Shown in pieces: positions 1-32,792 of a DNA stretch of 32,792 bases. The notes under the pieces are model-generated. The model made no database searches and was not told the origin of the DNA. It saw nothing but the letters and a program-made list of their open reading frames with translations. Made by a program: the position numbers and the translations under genes. Positions within the stretch are counted from its first letter, which is position 1, and the number at the start of each line of letters is the position of its first letter. Source of the DNA: Candidatus Aquidulcis frankliniae (GTDB lineage Bacteria; Chloroflexota; Limnocylindria; Limnocylindrales; Limnocylindraceae); the NCBI GenBank assembly GCA_009925905.1, contig RFPZ01000003.1, positions 1 through 32,792 of the forward strand. The letters run 5' to 3'.

Positions 1-191
1 TCGCTGCCGATGGGCATCTGCTCTTCGGAGTGCTGCACCCAAACCACTGGCGTACCAGCGGCCCGGGCGGCGGTAAGGAGCGTTTGGATGTTGGCGATGA
101 CTGCCTCGCGCTGAAACGCAGCGCCGACGACGCCGACTTGTACGTCGATGATCAGGAGTGCCGTGTTGTGGCGCTGGCTGAGCGTGCTCAA
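1..191 (-). CDS. Isochorismatase-family cysteine hydrolase (N-terminal part; runs off the window)
   Basis: Not in the ORF track. Manual translation from TTG at 191, which overlaps the DinB stop as TTGA: MSTLSQRHNTALLIIDVQVGVV...AARAAGTPVVWVQHSEEQMPIGS. TALLIIDVQ and PVVWVQH are family motifs. Confidence 0.88.
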   Translation of the reverse strand, partial: MSTLSQRHNTALLIIDVQVGVVGAAFQREAVIANIQTLLTAARAAGTPVVWVQHSEEQMPIGS

Positions 192-1392: not shown

Positions 1393-2364
1393 TTAGCGAC
1401 TTGTTCGTTCTCTCCGACGCAGCGCAAGAAGCACCGCCGACACTGCGACGGCGCCGATCGAGGCGAGTAGCACCCCAAGTTTTGCAGCACTCAGCGCTGC
1501 GTCAGACGTGAACGCGAGTTCGCTAATGAGCAGCGACACGGTGAAGCCGATTCCAGCGAGTGCACCGATGAGGGCAATGTCCATCCACTGCACGCCAGGT
1601 GAGAGCTTCGCCCCCAGCACCGTGGCCAGCCGTGCGGCAAGGATGATCCCCACCGGCTTACCGACAACGAGCCCAACGAACACGCCCAGTAGGATCGGCG
1701 AACTGATCACTGATTCAAATTCGATTGAACGAAGGTCAACCGCCGCGGCGAAGAGGGCAAAGAGCGGCACAGCGATCACGGCACTGATTGGATGAAAGCG
1801 CGAGACTGCGATCCATTCAAGGCTGAGGCCGGCCGAATAGAAGAGGGCAATCACCAGGATCGCACCGAGATCGTCAACAATCGCTAGCGTCAGCAGGAAC
1901 GTGCGCACGCCGGCGGGGAGTCCGCGGCCGAGCACCGCCAGTACCGCGAGGGCGAAGGCAATATCGGTGGCCATGGGGATCCCCCAGCCGTTTGCGGCAC
2001 CAGCTGCACCGCCTTGGCTAATCGCGACATAGAGGAGCGCAGGGACAGCCATGCCGCCGAGTGCGGCGGCAACGGGGAGCACCGCCTGGCGCGGCTTAGA
2101 GAGCGTGCCAACGACAAGCTCGTGCTTCAGCTCGCCTCCGATGACAAAGAAGAAGATGGCGAGGAGGGCGTCTGCAGTCCACTCCTGAATCGTGAGGTTG
2201 AGGTGGAGCGAATCAAGGCCGATGTGGGTCGTCGCAAGCGCATGGAACGCGCTCGAGAGTGGCCCATTGGCGAGGAGCAGCCCAATGATCGCAGCAACGA
2301 TCAGCAGCGCGCCGCCTGTAGTCTCGCCCTGGAGAAATGCACGTAGTCGCTGCTGGTTGGTCAT
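1393..2364 (-). CDS. nhaA: Na+/H+ antiporter NhaA with in-frame internal deletion (possibly non-functional)
   Basis: Has FFFVIGGELK, GWGIPMATDIAFAL, LAIVDDLGAI, GKPVGI and AGIGFTVSLLI. Only 323 aa and lacks the SGVHAT helix region. Confidence 0.9.
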   Translation of the reverse strand: MTNQQRLRAFLQGETTGGALLIVAAIIGLLLANGPLSSAFHALATTHIGLDSLHLNLTIQEWTADALLAIFFFVIGGELKHELVVGTLSKPRQAVLPVAAALGGMAVPALLYVAISQGGAAGAANGWGIPMATDIAFALAVLAVLGRGLPAGVRTFLLTLAIVDDLGAILVIALFYSAGLSLEWIAVSRFHPISAVIAVPLFALFAAAVDLRSIEFESVISSPILLGVFVGLVVGKPVGIILAARLATVLGAKLSPGVQWMDIALIGALAGIGFTVSLLISELAFTSDAALSAAKLGVLLASIGAVAVSAVLLALRRRERTSR

Positions 2365-3322: not shown

Positions 3323-3907
3323 ATGCTTGCGCAGTGGGATTGGACCGGTCTATTCGGGGGGCTGATTAGCTTCCTCGTCGTGCTGTACGTGCAGCGCACG
3401 CAGCGCATTCGCAGCACCCGCGGCACCACCGTGAGCATGATCGCCTTTGCTGGCCTGGTCGCCTATGTGTGGGCGCCGATCGGCTTCCCCAACTCCGATT
3501 GGTCGCGTGCGCCGATGGGCACCGATGTGATTCGGCTGATCCCAGTGATCAATTTTGACCCGGCACTCCTGCAAACCCAATGGTTGCTCGTGCAGGTGAG
3601 CATGGGTGCGGCTACCTTCTTTCTCGCAACCCTTGCCCTCTACGGCGATGCGCGGCGGGCGGCCTTCGCCGTCATTGGCATCATGGCCGTGGGGCTGGAG
3701 ATCAGCCAGGCGCTCTCGAACTACTTCTCAAGCCCAGTACCGCCCTACCGCGTAGACGTGCACGATGTTCTGGCGCGGGCCGCTGGCGCGCTTGCTACCT
3801 ACGTTCTACTCAAGATCATCGGCGCGATATGGCGCCTCTTGGTTCAACCCTCGTTCGCGAAGAGCGGCCTCATCGGCTTTATTGATGGGGTCACGCGCCG
3901 TATCTAG
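3323..3907 (+). CDS. VanZ-like membrane protein
   Basis: Several TM segments and C-terminal LEISQ...RVDVHDVLARAAG, resembling the VanZ E-x2-Q...D-x2-D motif. Confidence 0.65.
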   Translation: MLAQWDWTGLFGGLISFLVVLYVQRTQRIRSTRGTTVSMIAFAGLVAYVWAPIGFPNSDWSRAPMGTDVIRLIPVINFDPALLQTQWLLVQVSMGAATFFLATLALYGDARRAAFAVIGIMAVGLEISQALSNYFSSPVPPYRVDVHDVLARAAGALATYVLLKIIGAIWRLLVQPSFAKSGLIGFIDGVTRRI

Positions 3908-3961
3908 TGGTTGCAAGCTGTTGCAGTAACGACCTCCGCGCGGAGGCGATACGATAGCGAC

Positions 3962-4054
3962 ATGACCGCAGCTGCACTCATTGCCCAAGCCGCTGGCGAG
4001 CCGAGCATCTGTCGATGCCCGTCGCTCTCCTTCGGGCCGTCCTGCGCGCGCTGA
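3962..4054 (+). CDS. Putative leaderless Cys-containing leader peptide (30 aa) of cysK-cysE
   Basis: TACGAT 3950-3955, 6 nt, then ATG. Sequence MTAAALIAQAAGEPSICRCPSLSFGPSCAR*, with Cys codons at 4010, 4016 and 4043. Ends 81 nt before cysK. Confidence 0.65.
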   Translation: MTAAALIAQAAGEPSICRCPSLSFGPSCAR

Positions 4055-4127
4055 GGCGATCGCAACCGGGGACCAAACGGCAGAGGGGGCGGCGGTTGTA
4101 GTCCACCGCCCACCATGTAGCTGGAGG
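4019..4127 (+). promoter_or_regulatory. Putative attenuator with mutually exclusive stems upstream of cysK
   Basis: 4019-4029 can pair with 4085-4095 (11 bp, 3 GU). Alternatively 4091-4096 pairs with 4105-4110. SD GGAGG at 4123-4127. Confidence 0.5.
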
Positions 4128-4135
4128 TACCCAAC

Positions 4136-5125
4136 ATGACCGTTCACAACCCAGGAATCTTTTCTGACAACGCCATCACGATCGGTCGCACCCCGTTGGT
4201 GCGCCTGAATCGTGTTACCGACGGCGCCGCCGCAACGGTGCTCGCCAAGATCGAAGGGCGCAACCCTGCCTACTCTGTGAAGTGCCGCCTCGGCACCGCC
4301 ATGGTGCTCGACGCAGAGAAGCGCGGCGTGTTGAAGCCTGGGATGGAGATCGTGGAGCCGACGAGTGGCAACACCGGCATCGCACTTGCGATGGTCGGGG
4401 CCGCACGAGGCTACAAGGTGACCCTCACCATGCCCGACACCGTGAGTATTGAGCGACGCAAGTTGATCGTTGCCTACGGCGCAACGCTGGTGCTCACCGA
4501 AGGTGCGAAGGGCATGCCCGGCGCGATCGCGAAGGCCGAAGAGATTGCCGCCTCGGACCCTGCACGCTACGTGCTGTTGCAGCAGTTCAAGAATCCAGCC
4601 GGCCCAGCGATTCACGAGTCAACCACCGGGCCAGAAATTTGGGACGACACCGACGGCAAGATCGACATCTTTGTTGCAGGGAGTGGCACTGGCGGCACCA
4701 TCACCGGCGTCGCGCGCTATTTGAAGAAGGGTCGTGGCAAGGCGGTGCAGATTGTTGCCGTTGAGCCAGCTACGAGCCCGGTGATTGCGCAACGCATGGC
4801 GGGCCAGCCGAATCAGCCAGCACCACACAAGATTCAAGGGATCGGGCCTGGCTTCGTGCCAGACATCCTCGACATCTCGCTGATTGACCAAGTTGAGTCG
4901 GTGACGAACGAAGAGGCGATCGCCATGGCGCGTCGAATCGCTCGTGAAGAGGGGATCCTCGTGGGTATCTCGTGCGGCGCTGCGGCACACGTTGCGCTGA
5001 AGTTGGCGCATCTGCCAGAGAACGCTGGGAAGACGATTGTGGTGGTGCTGCCAGATTCGGGCGAGCGCTACCTGAGCACCGCGCTCTACGAGGGTCTCTT
5101 CGATGCGAACGGCATCGCCCTGTGA
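4136..5125 (+). CDS. cysK: Cysteine synthase A (O-acetylserine sulfhydrylase)
   Basis: NPAYSVKCR (PLP lysine), [23 protein letters not shown] and [10 protein letters not shown]. Confidence 0.97.
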
Positions 5126-6012
5126 GCCTTGACGCAACCGAACTGAGTCGCACACTGACCGCCGCTGACGCTGCCCTGGCGGGTGGTGCGGTGGCGGCTG
5201 GCGACCGTCCAACGCGCGGTGAGATCACCCGCGTGCTGGCTGAGCTTCGTTCGGCGCTCTTTCCGCGTGAACTCGGCGTTGCCGCAGATGGTGAGGCGGC
5301 GGTTGCCGCACACCTTGCCTCGGCGCTCGCTGGACTGCGCGAGCAGATCCGACGTTGCATCGTGCTGTTTGCTGCCGAGCGACCAGGTGAGGGACTCGCT
5401 CCAGATCAGGTCGATCGCGTGACGAACGCGTTTGCTGCGGAGCTCCCCACTATTCGCACGCTGATTGAGGGGGATATCGCGGCGGCCTTTGCGGGAGATC
5501 CAGCGGCACGTAGCCGATCAGAGATCCTGCACGGGTACCCAGGCGTACGCGCAATGATCGATCACCGCATGGCCCACCTGCTCTATACGTTGGGGGTTCC
5601 ACTCCTGCCGCGCATCGCGTCGGAAGCCGCTCACTCGGCGACGGGGATCGACATTCACCCGGGTGCAACGATCGGCGAGCGCTTCTTCATCGACCACGGC
5701 ACCGGCGTGGTGATTGGCGAGACGGCGATCATCGGCAGTGGCGTGCGCCTCTACCAAGGCGTGACGCTTGGTTCCAAGAGCTTCCCGAAGGGTGACGATG
5801 GCAACCTCGTCAAGGGGCAGCCGCGCCACCCAATCATTGAAGATGATGTGGTGATCTATTCGGGCGCTACGGTGCTTGGCCGAATCACGGTTGGGCGTGG
5901 TTCAACGATCGGCGGCAATGTATGGCTGACCAAGAGCGTTCCTGCCGGGAGCCAACTGTCGCAGGCGCGCGTGCGCACCGACGAGCTTGCAGCCGAGGGT
6001 TCGGGGATCTAG
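5122..6012 (+). CDS. cysE: Serine O-acetyltransferase (EpsC-type)
   Basis: [37 protein letters not shown] and RHP. GTG start overlaps the cysK stop (GTGA). Confidence 0.95.
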
Positions 6013-6036
6013 CGCCCGGCGGGATAGAATCCCGCC

Positions 6037-6093
6037 ATGCCCACACGCCTTGCATTAGTAAACGCACTCGCCCGCGTCGCCGTGCGCTCATGA
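6037..6093 (+). CDS. Putative leaderless uORF (18 aa) coupled to the ABC exporter
   Basis: TAGAAT 6025-6030, 6 nt, then ATG. Sequence MPTRLALVNALARVAVRS*; its stop overlaps the downstream ATG as ATGA at 6090-6093. Confidence 0.55.
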   Translation: MPTRLALVNALARVAVRS

Positions 6094-7952
6094 GCGGTGG
6101 CATGGGTTCGGGGCGTGGGGGCCACATGTTCGGCGGCGATGACAGCGGCCCAACAAAGCCAGCCGGGGCGGCCCTGCCACTCCTACGACGCGCGGCAAAA
6201 TTCTTTGGCCCATATCGCGGACGACTCGGCGTCATTGGGCTCGCCATCCTTGGGTCTAGCATCTTGGGGCTTGCGAACCCGTATCTTCTCAAGCTCCTCA
6301 TCGACGAGGCGATTCCGCGGCGCGACCTTGGCCTCCTGGCGCTCTACGCCGGGCTGATGGTGGTGGTGCCGATCATCAACGGCGGCATTGGGCTCGCCCA
6401 GGCGTGGCTCACCGCCTCGGTTGGCCAGTTCGTGATGCGCGACCTGCGCAACGCACTCTTCACCCACGTTCAGTCGATGCCGATCCGCTTCTTCTCGGAG
6501 ACGCGCACTGGCGAGATTCAGAGTCGCCTCACCAACGATGTCTCTGGCGTGCAGTCGGTCGTCAGTGATGCCGCTGCAAACCTTGCCTCAAGCATTGCGA
6601 TCGTTGTCTCAACGCTGGTGGCGATGACACTCATTGATTGGCGCCTCACTGCGGTGAGCATCGCCGTTGCGCCACTCTTCCTCTTCTTAACATCGAAGGC
6701 CTCCGCCGCGCGCCGCAAGGCGAGTGGCGAAGTGCAAACGGCGCTTGCCGACCTCACCTCCATTGCTGAAGAGCACCTGTCAGTCGGTGGCGCACTGCTC
6801 GCGAAATCATTCGGCCGTTCCGAGGCTGGTGCCGAGCGCTTCACGCAACGTTCTGGTGAACTTGCCACACTGCAGCTTCGCCAAGCGCTCACTGGCCGAT
6901 GGGTTGGCGTAGTGGTCCAGGTGGTCTTCAGCGGCATTCCAGCGCTGGTCTACTTCGCAGCGGGTTCGCTTGCTGTTGCGGGCGCGCCTGATGCGCCAAC
7001 CATCGGTGACATCGTTGCGTTCACCACGCTGCAAAGCCGACTCTTCTTCCCGCTTGCGTCACTGCTTGGCCTCCAGGTAGAGATCGGCGGCAGCCTCGCG
7101 CTCTTCGAGCGCATCTTCGCCTACCTCGACCTTGTTCCAGAGATTGTCGATGCGCCGAACGCGATCACGCTGACCCGCTCCGGCGTGCGCGGCCAGGTCT
7201 CGCTGCGCGACGTGAGCTTCCGCTATCCGCAGCCGCCCGAGGGGCAGGGCCGACAGCGGCGCGACACTTTCGGTTTGAGCAACATCTCGTTCACGGCGGA
7301 GCCGGGGAGCCTCACCGCTCTCGTTGGGCCATCGGGCTCTGGGAAGAGCACCATCTTGAGTTTGATCCCGCGCTTCTGGGATGCAGGCGCTGGCGCAGTA
7401 CAACTCGATGGCGTCGATGTGCGCGGAATCAAACTTCGCTCCCTTGGCGAGATGATCGGCGTTGTGACCCAAGAGACGCACCTGCTGCACGCGACCATTC
7501 GCGAAAATTTGCTCTATGCGCGACCTGGGGCGACCGATGCACAGATCCTCGTGGCCCTTGCGGGGGCATCGCTGGCCGAGCGCATCAAGGAGCTGCCGCA
7601 AGGACTCGATACTGTTGTAGGGGAGCGTGGCTACAAGCTTTCTGGCGGCGAACGTCAACGGTTGGCAATCGCCCGTGTGCTCTTGAAGGACCCACCCATC
7701 CTCTTACTCGACGAGGCGACCTCGGCACTCGACTCGGTTTCGGAACGCCATGTGCAACAGGCGCTTGAGCGCGCCATGGCCGGGCGCACCACCATCGCCG
7801 TTGCCCACCGACTGAGCACCGTGGCCTCGGCAGATCAGATCATCGTGTTGAATCACGGTGAAATCGTGGAGCGCGGGCGACACGAGGAGTTGCGCACACG
7901 GGGCGGCCTCTACGCCGAACTTGCCGCGGTGCAGTTCGGACTGCACGCGTAG
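6090..7952 (+). CDS. ABC exporter, fused permease/ATP-binding protein (MdlB/MsbA-like)
   Basis: TM domain with TGEIQSRLTNDV, Walker A GPSGSGKST, LSGGERQR, LLLDEATSALD and AHRLST. Start reassigned to ATG 6090. Confidence 0.93.
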   Translation: MSGGMGSGRGGHMFGGDDSGPTKPAGAALPLLRRAAKFFGPYRGRLGVIGLAILGSSILGLANPYLLKLLIDEAIPRRDLGLLALYAGLMVVVPIINGGIGLAQAWLTASVGQFVMRDLRNALFTHVQSMPIRFFSETRTGEIQSRLTNDVSGVQSVVSDAAANLASSIAIVVSTLVAMTLIDWRLTAVSIAVAPLFLFLTSKASAARRKASGEVQTALADLTSIAEEHLSVGGALLAKSFGRSEAGAERFTQRSGELATLQLRQALTGRWVGVVVQVVFSGIPALVYFAAGSLAVAGAPDAPTIGDIVAFTTLQSRLFFPLASLLGLQVEIGGSLALFERIFAYLDLVPEIVDAPNAITLTRSGVRGQVSLRDVSFRYPQPPEGQGRQRRDTFGLSNISFTAEPGSLTALVGPSGSGKSTILSLIPRFWDAGAGAVQLDGVDVRGIKLRSLGEMIGVVTQETHLLHATIRENLLYARPGATDAQILVALAGASLAERIKELPQGLDTVVGERGYKLSGGERQRLAIARVLLKDPPILLLDEATSALDSVSERHVQQALERAMAGRTTIAVAHRLSTVASADQIIVLNHGEIVERGRHEELRTRGGLYAELAAVQFGLHA

Positions 7953-32670: not shown

Positions 32671-32729
32671 GTTGCAGACGCAACCATACCCCTTGACCAA
32701 AATGATTGCAAGTGCAACTATTGCAATCA
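32671..32729. promoter_or_regulatory. Divergent promoter region with TTGC...GCAA inverted repeats (putative repressor operators)
   Basis: GTTGC-agac-GCAAC at 32671-32684 and TGATTGCAA-N9-TTGCAATCA at 32703-32729. Minus-strand promoter: TTGCAA (32711-32706), 17 nt, TATGGT (32688-32683). Confidence 0.65.
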
Positions 32730-32792
32730 ATGGCAACAACAAAAGAGCCCGTGAGCGCCGAGATTGAAGCACTCTCCGCAGTGCTTGGTACC
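32730..32792 (+). CDS. N-terminus of a divergent gene, possibly a transcriptional regulator
   Basis: ATG 32730 is open to the window end (MATTKEPVSAEIEALSAVLGT) and sits immediately after the inverted repeats. Product is unknown from sequence alone. Confidence 0.45.
   Translation, partial: MATTKEPVSAEIEALSAVLGT

Follow-up and report, generated by a model that had tools for sequence, protein, structure and literature searches.

Upstream of the cysteine genes cysK and cysE of Candidatus Aquidulcis frankliniae, we identified a conserved leader that is, on balance, probably a cysteine-responsive leader-peptide attenuator on a leaderless mRNA, switching between a hairpin (P1) and an alternative helix (2:3) and acting on translation. 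The window, i.e. the whole stretch of DNA that was analysed, comprises 32,792 nucleotides of contig RFPZ01000003.1 (assembly GCA_009925905.1). The leader is conserved, its open reading frame (ORF) is under coding selection, its RNA contains a hairpin and alternative complementarities, and members of the family are linked to two cysteine loci. We infer for it a start at the ORF, a ribosome stall at a Cys codon, the assignment of ON and OFF states and a translational output. The sensor side, made up of a leaderless translated ORF, an invariant rare Cys codon, the conserved hairpin and the two cysteine operons, is well supported. The general idea of a leaderless Cys-sensing attenuator was put forward in an earlier note on this DNA and is supported by the family, the promoter geometry, Cys17 and the cysteine loci; its wiring had to be revised with regard to Cys19, the C-rich segment and the role of the 2:3 helix. 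The features are listed in Table 1.

Table 1 Features of the leader and adjacent genes in the window, and nucleotide diversity (pi, from 41 type-A leaders; leader nt 1 = 3962).
Feature	Coordinates	Strand	pi	Description
Two-part motif TTGCAA, 4-5 nt, TGCAGTAAC-like	3911-3930	+		about -52 to -32 from the proposed start
-10-like hexamer TACGAT	3950-3955	+		6 nt before ATG 3962
Leader ORF	3962-4054	+		proposed leaderless start A3962; 30 codons in 17/17 first variants; HMM matches
Hairpin P1	3995-4030	+		inner stem 4005-4009/4014-4018, loop UGUC 4010-4013, outer stem GGcGAGC/GCUCuCC; segment 1 = 5' arm, segment 2 = 3' arm
Cys17 codon UGU, proposed sensing codon	4010-4012	+		TGT in 99/99 unique variants
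Segment 2 (CCGUCGCUCUC)	4019-4029	+		P1 3' arm; alternative partner 4085-4095
Hairpin H2	4036-4081	+		sORF end, stop codon and post-stop GGGGACC..CGGC (4068-4081); RNAalifold consensus and window MFE; region nearly invariant
Segment 3, G-rich (GGGGGCGGCGG)	4085-4095	+		invariant in 39/39 type-A leaders; pairs with segment 2
Segment 4, C-rich	4103-4114	+		variable; probably not essential
cysK Shine-Dalgarno GGAGG	4123-4127	+		8 nt before ATG 4136; opening energy 7.8 kcal/mol in the free leader
cysK (cysteine synthase A)	4136-5125	+		NCBIfam equivalog TIGR01139, 450.9 bits (cut-off 350.95)
Serine O-acetyltransferase (cysE-like)	5122-6012	+		NF041874, 159.5 bits (cut-off 150); TIGR01172, 164.5 bits, below cut-off 210.65
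Promoter spacer			0.286	
Leader nt 19-134	3980-4095		0.024	
Non-coding nt 94-134			0.034	inside nt 19-134
Stretch with C-rich putative anti-SD			0.236	nt -40 to -17 from the cysK ATG
SD to ATG			0.093	
cysK third codon positions			0.243	

A leader ORF family ahead of two cysteine loci

The ORF encodes MTAAALIAQAAGEPSICRCPSLSFGPSCAR*, with 30 codons followed by TGA (4052-4054) and Cys at positions 17, 19 and 28. The C-R-C and the third Cys near the end that the earlier note had described are present exactly. The peptide family follows the pattern M-[TS]-A-A-x-L-I-A-x-x-A-G-E-P-S-I-C17. A profile HMM made from five peptide variants gave 48 matches in all, and full-length matches with an E of 1e-13 or better were found in 37 of the 42 genomes of the genus (Ca. 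Limnocylindrus), including the window's own genome (G000; 1.23 Mb, 90% complete). The genomes carrying the leader ORF measure 0.7-1.4 Mb and many are incomplete. The same search in 159 sister-family genomes gave no credible match (best E = 0.0013). A 29-base core of the ORF was present in 16 species-genome records, labelled as Chloroflexota, Ca. Limnocylindrus or Ca. Aquidulcis MAGs, in some cases just as 'bacterium' and in one as Thermoflexus hugenholtzii.

We also searched 185,579 species genomes with a back-translated pattern, which returned 64 stretches, 41 of them confirmed. All 41 come from the same Chloroflexota clade, and this search found the peptide family nowhere else among those genomes; the earlier suggestion of a lineage different from the mycobacteria is borne out, the clade being Chloroflexota and not Actinomycetota. 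A metagenome scan returned 113 stretches, of which 83 were confirmed and 80 kept. The species-genome and metagenome sets together hold 99 unique nucleotide variants and 40 peptide variants, all from one genus, so that counts over them are not independent. Exceptions to the length of 30 codons are the G054 type (29 codons) and one copy in G023 (24 codons). The latter, at the second locus of G023 (L232, G023:C90:5736-5807), is without a TAnnnT hexamer and forms the in-frame end of an open frame of 311 codons; there it may belong to the upstream gene as its tail. When G000 was scanned for leaderless-looking sORFs with at least two Cys codons, 23 of 137 qualified, none of them convincing beyond the two family members. 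The leader ORF is far from a chance occurrence.

The leaders fall into types according to the genes that follow. Type A, to which the window belongs, is found ahead of cysK-cysE. The GTG start of the cysE-like gene (5122) overlaps the cysK TGA (GTGA; window 5117-5125), and this overlap suggests translational coupling of both genes. A fused ABC permease/ATPase (5922-7952) comes after cysE and overlaps its end by 91 nt as listed; its best NCBIfam matches are MsbA and the CydC/CydD thiol exporter, all under cut-off. Type B leaders precede genes for a DUF4395 membrane protein, a rhodanese-ThiF (MoeB/MoeZ-like) protein, a ThiS/MoaD-like carrier (CysO-like) and a CysK/M-family synthase (CysM), a gene set which we take to be a CysO-CysM type of route. 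No close cysK ortholog was found in type B genomes. Type B' leaders stand ahead of DUF4395 alone, in genomes that also have type A.

The second leader copy of G000 (contig C7:1594-1683, locus L110) reads MSAAEFIASVAGEPSICRRSHAPGLRPLAR; it contains one Cys, and its ATG is preceded by TACGAT at a distance of 7 nt. It follows nifS-nifU-like genes, named from Pfam hits of syntenic genes in G004 and G003 and from sequence, and precedes a gene for a DUF4395 membrane protein; the contig stops at 2600. The leader ORF therefore precedes cysteine-related genes at several loci, namely cysK-serine O-acetyltransferase, the C7 copy and the type B operon. Genomes seemingly have either cysK-cysE with a second locus of DUF4395 only (L106 in G004:C37, L107 in G010:C21) or a single sORF-DUF4395-MoeZ-like-CysO-like-CysM operon (L108 in G003:C3), a pattern that is limited by the incompleteness of the MAGs (54-93%). 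In sixteen cysK neighbourhoods of the sister family the genes are arranged as cysE-cysK or cysO-cysM, and none of these neighbourhoods contains a related sORF.

Promoter geometry and an upstream motif

In 98 of the 99 unique variants a TAnnnT hexamer precedes the ORF start, with a spacing of 6 nt in 56 of them and of 7 nt in 42, and it takes nine different forms. The TACGAT spaced 6 nt from the ATG that the earlier note had remarked on is confirmed by this conservation, and it also matches a genome-wide peak. Among the 1616 ORFs of G000 with at least 150 codons, 101 have a TAnnnT starting at -12 and 23 have one starting at -13, compared with 0-12 at every other offset, and the TACGAT of the window spans -12 to -7. 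According to the part of the source drawn on here, TAnnnT at such an offset is a signature of leaderless genes in high-GC bacteria, reaching about 4.7% in four of twelve Chloroflexi genomes (PMC3160421); the share in G000 is higher. A sigma-70 consensus scan of 3700-4300 gave no promoter, and the -10-only signature of G000 was found instead. Because the TAnnnT geometry is kept in 98 of 99 variants and the genome peaks at -12, we judge that the leader ORF probably has a leaderless start at or beside A3962. One metatranscriptome contig (3836-3998) spans 3962 and counts against this, the RNA data being assembled contigs of riverine metatranscriptomes, which carry no starts, strands or levels.

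Upstream of the hexamer, the two-part motif is kept in type A, B and B' promoters amid variable flanks and is absent in G023. It is possibly an operator common to both sORF-led loci. Loose regular expressions for the motif matched G000 202 times and then 40 times, mostly within genes, and only four of the matches were alike. Look-alikes are present in the window (32706-32745) and on G000 contig C10 (L235; about 1430-1475, minus strand), the latter upstream of a 99-residue FUR-family gene (Pfam FUR, 35.1 bits).

Selection on the peptide and a single proposed sensing codon

We compared the peptides of 32 unique sORFs and found that A3, I7, A8, A11, G12, E13, P14, S15, I16 and C17 are invariant, with L6 kept in 30. 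Seven of the ten invariant residues are encoded by 2-4 synonymous codons, and P14, I16 and C17 by one codon each; with L6 included, A3, L6, I7, A8, A11, G12, E13 and S15 use 2 to 6 synonymous codons. The codons of Ser15 in the 99 variants comprise AGC (47), TCC (31), TCG (20) and TCA (1), i.e. a switch between the AGC and TCN families. Since these residues are kept across synonymous codons, including the Ser15 switch, the comparison indicates that the ORF is translated and that the peptide itself is under selection. Residues 18-28 vary freely, and the ending A-R-stop is conserved. The nascent peptide is thus conserved at the amino-acid level up to the proposed stall site.

The pattern searches demanded a Cys at position 17, so that the invariance of this residue is circular, which does not apply to the choice of its codon. 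TGT makes up 23% of Cys codons in G000, where Cys accounts for 0.69% of all codons and we detected one tRNA-Cys(GCA). Among the 48 matches of the unbiased HMM search, GEPSIC was present at 36 of 36 places examined. The other Cys residues behave differently. Cys19 is replaced by Arg in both B and B' leaders and by Tyr in one variant of type A, and G023 has lost Cys28; leaders of types B and B' contain one Cys only, and consecutive Cys codons (CC) occur solely in the G054-type leader. This pattern indicates that Cys19 and Cys28 are dispensable. Conservation of the Cys codons in relatives, which had been proposed as a check, is therefore found for Cys17 and fails for Cys19 and Cys28.

The conserved N-terminal peptide goes beyond what simple attenuation requires. 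It is unlikely, though worth weighing, that the leader encodes an arrest peptide, whose ..AGEPSI nascent chain would itself halt translation at codon 17, much as TnaC or SpeFL does, intrinsically or via a sulfur-pathway metabolite, with the supply of Cys-tRNA being secondary. Such a function would account for amino-acid selection on residues 3-17 next to free variation at 18-28, for the retention of one Cys codon only in the paralogs, and for the fixed 30-codon length with its conserved A-R-stop ending, and with codon 17 being decoded the whole conserved peptide would sit in the exit tunnel. However, the invariant codon is a Cys codon in a Cys-making operon, which plain tRNA sensing explains, and we know of no arrest motif that resembles this peptide. 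A tentative elaboration, which we hold to be rather doubtful, is that the 16-residue nascent chain makes the UGU a dedicated sensor, either by rendering the peptide bond at codon 17 hypersensitive to Cys-tRNA or through a metabolite sensed in the tunnel.

Structure of the leader RNA

P1 is formed by codons 11-16 together with codons 18-24, places the Cys17 UGU in its loop and is predicted in all leader types. Four different inner stems were observed (GCAUC/GAUGC, CCGUC/GACGG, CCGAG/CUCGG and GUCGA/UCGAC), and the outer stems co-vary. Compared with 1000 synonymous recodings, P1 was more stable in 9 of 9 sequences (z -1.0 to -3.9; -2.65 in the window), five of which ranked at 1.2% or less. In 21 type-B/B' sequences, the four shared P1 pairs were paired in every case; two of the four were changed on both sides, probably in one evolutionary event. 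We rejected a T-box-like reading, in which the loop UGU would meet the anticodon of tRNA-Cys, since in both type A and type B' the loop measures only 4 nt and no T-box model matched.

The 3' arm of P1, segment 2, has an alternative partner in segment 3. The complementarity between 4019-4029 and 4085-4095 pointed out in the earlier note is present and comprises 11 bp, including three G.U pairs. In the window this 2:3 duplex has an energy of -22.8 kcal/mol, compared with -16.9 +/- 2.8 kcal/mol for shuffled sequences, a modest excess, as 4% of 200 dinucleotide shuffles were as good. The duplex recurs in diverged relatives with changed sequences, and in types A and B it reaches -19 to -25 kcal/mol (-15.2 in one type-B leader) with z of about -2 against shuffles; in type B' it was not better than chance. 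RNAalifold gives the 2:3 helix, with H2 enclosed by it, as the consensus structure of types A and B. In the free RNA, segment 2 is predicted to pair inside P1 in 29 of 33 leaders. Equilibrium folding of the window gave no 2:3 pairing, even with a mask for the stalled ribosome, and the stability of the whole leader equals that of shuffles (z -0.07).

That the region might be a known riboswitch had been named beforehand as a finding that would overturn the idea. Rfam 15 covariance models gave no credible match in 3700-4400 at E up to 10, and none in the paralogous loci at E up to 1.

Predicted masking of the Shine-Dalgarno sequence and the direction of the proposed switch

We assessed accessibility of the Shine-Dalgarno sequence (SD) by its opening energy, as the mean unpaired probability over GGAGG is misleading when two central bases are always unpaired. 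Opening energies were 3-11 kcal/mol in all leaders. A clear anti-SD, located within about 10 nt past the sORF stop, pairs with the SD in a long-range stem in type B as well as in the diverged type-A leaders from G023 and G054. Among leaders of the main type A, the outer G residues of the SD are usually paired, with a partner that differs between sequences. The post-stop GGGACC..CGGC carries the largest share of SD pairing in 9 of 19 type-A leaders; the window is not among them. Here masking is weak and its partner ambiguous: the SD is predicted to pair with the 5' end of the mRNA (3965-3976 with 4116-4128, p 0.83-0.99), a pairing unkept in most relatives.

With Cys17 in the A site, a ribosome would, by standard toeprint geometry, cover the mRNA to about nt 61 (about 4022). 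A stall at Cys17 would therefore melt P1 and free most of 4019-4029, and for this reason the 2:3 helix is more likely the starvation (ON) structure than the repressed one. In equilibrium folding of type A, a mask on nt 1-61 (3962-4022) or on nt 32-61 did not open the SD systematically. We then imposed two paths, OFF with P1 formed and stall with nt 1-61 covered and 2:3 formed. On the stall path the SD was easier to open in 28 of 33 leaders, including the window (5.4 to 4.1 kcal/mol, i.e. -1.3 kcal/mol). By type, this was seen in 13 of 17 type-A leaders (mean -0.8 kcal/mol), both diverged type-A leaders (-2.9), 10 of 11 type-B leaders (-1.5) and 3 of 3 type-B' leaders (-3.0); four of the 17 type-A leaders go the wrong way, the shift is a small one, and the leaders compared are related to one another. 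The modelled direction fits ON under starvation.

Taken together, the attenuator that we favour would work as follows. Transcription would begin at or next to A3962, and 70S ribosomes would at once translate the 30-codon ORF. The sensing codon would be the single invariant, wobble-read UGU of Cys17, placed after the conserved 16-residue nascent peptide and in the P1 loop. With Cys-tRNA plentiful, the ribosome would reach the stop codon and leave, P1 (1:2) would re-form, and the post-stop stretch would pair with the cysK SD region, keeping translation of cysK-cysE low. With Cys-tRNA scarce, the ribosome would wait at codon 17 on segment 1, and the freed segment 2 would clamp segment 3; this clamp would lock the post-stop stretch into H2 and leave the SD freer, turning the operon ON.

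The same Cys17 sensor could instead act on transcription, through Rho-dependent termination in an untranslated leader or early cysK as set by the alternative folds, which we regard as quite unlikely. G000 encodes Rho, SD masking in type A is weak with an inconsistent partner, and the leader has no intrinsic terminator: no terminator-like site was found in 3962-4136, the sole one in 3700-4300 being at 3821-3836. There is also a precedent in that Rho has been proposed for actinobacterial cys leaders in the consulted part of PMC1262725. These points are offset by the C-rich stretch, a possible Rho loading stretch, being not conserved, by the clear anti-SD within about 10 nt of the stop in type B and in G023/G054, and, as weak evidence, by metatranscriptome contigs that join the leader to cysK.

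Extent of the conserved core

We calculated nucleotide diversity along the leader. Leader nt 19-134 evolved about ten times more slowly than third codon positions of cysK. Because the diversity of the C-rich stretch is near-neutral and CCGCCC occurs in one leader, the profile indicates that the functional core ends at the G-rich segment and that the C-rich element is dispensable.

Conservation of the non-coding nt 94-134 equals that of coding positions. This, together with the conserved peptide and the shared upstream DNA motif, which implies at least one further control layer, could be accommodated by an element that does not sense cysteine, either a small protein with a function of its own or a 116-nt structured RNA core bound by a protein or ligand. 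We consider this highly improbable, given the missing Rfam match, a global stability equal to shuffles and a C-terminal half of the peptide that is not conserved as protein; the place ahead of two different cysteine operons and the invariant rare Cys codon favour cis-sensing.

The wiring first suggested was that 4019-4029 pairs with 4085-4095 when no ribosome is stalled and 4102-4115 masks the SD (OFF), and that a ribosome stalled at Cys17/19 masks 4019-4029, so that 4102-4115 is taken up by the G-rich segment and the SD becomes accessible (ON). All three complementarities are present in the window, the 3:4 hairpin is part of its MFE structure, and a ribosome halted at Cys19 would sit on most of 4019-4029. 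Of these pairings, that of the G-rich segment with the C-rich one (GGGCGG with CCGCCC at 4106-4111) exists here and is peculiar to the window, CCGCCC being found in 1 of 39 aligned type-A leaders. The complementarity of 4102-4115 to the SD is real as far as CCACCA (4110-4115) matches UGGAGG with a central A.A mismatch, and its role as an anti-SD is not sustained by its near-neutral evolution (pi 0.236 compared with 0.243). With Cys19 missing in types B and B' and in one type-A variant, segment 2 inside P1 rather than paired with 4085-4095 in the predicted free RNA, a Cys17 stall that would free rather than mask most of 4019-4029, and an SD of the window that stays closed under both ribosome masks at equilibrium, this is the least credible of the readings.

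Comparison with known systems and implications

The closest parallel to the proposed attenuator is in mycobacteria. In M. smegmatis, ribosomes that stall on the Cys codons in leaderless sORFs release an RBS from sequestration (10.1101/834739), and the mycobacterial sORF Rv2334A precedes cysK1-cysE, with Ms5788A being another polycysteine leaderless sORF (Canestrari et al. 2020, 10.1101/834739). As those sORFs are described in the portion of that report used here, the leader resembles them in being a short unannotated ORF that contains Cys codons, is placed at the 5' end of the mRNA and precedes cysteine operons at two or more loci of a genome, and in the proposed effect of a stalled ribosome on pairing around the downstream RBS. 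The search criterion given there for mycobacterial sORFs is at least two consecutive Cys codons (10.1101/834739), whereas the window has C-R-C and a distant Cys. By the same partial description, the leader is set apart by belonging to Chloroflexota, by one invariant UGU with optional further Cys and no Cys run, by its strongly conserved N-terminal peptide and by the display of the Cys codon in a conserved hairpin loop. Candidate Cys leader peptides have also been listed before cys/cbs operons of Mycobacterium, Propionibacterium acnes and Bifidobacterium longum (Seliverstov et al. 2005, PMC1262725). Going by the excerpted account, they likewise precede cysteine operons without an obvious intrinsic terminator, but they have Cys runs near the stop and no conserved hairpins, in contrast to the single mid-ORF Cys and conserved alternative helices found here.

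Like trp/his attenuators, the leader has a regulatory codon in its ORF and overlapping 1:2 and 2:3 helices that would be chosen by ribosome position. Unlike them, it has no U-tailed terminator as a 3:4 element, it is leaderless, its output is probably translation initiation and segment 4 is not conserved. The proposed arrest of a ribosome on a short leader ORF to expose the next RBS is shared with ermC/cat attenuation and with TnaC/SpeFL arrest, and as in the latter the tunnel of the stalled ribosome would contain a conserved nascent peptide; in contrast to all of these, no drug or ligand is known here, and the role of the peptide in stalling is putative.

Literature searches at the level of titles and the beginnings of abstracts turned up no description of such an element in Chloroflexota or beyond Actinobacteria; at this level, cysteine sensing by leaderless sORFs has been demonstrated only in mycobacteria and predicted only in Actinobacteria. 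The leader described here would bring the same logic to another phylum with a new design, in which a single invariant, rare Cys codon is combined with a conserved nascent peptide and a codon-presenting hairpin. This suggests that 'ribulons' arise independently wherever leaderless translation is common, and it would make the leader a compact case for how few regulatory codons a leader peptide needs. If the nascent chain does turn the UGU into a dedicated sensor, the leader would represent a new class of arrest peptide that coordinates two cysteine-synthesis routes in genome-streamlined freshwater Chloroflexota.
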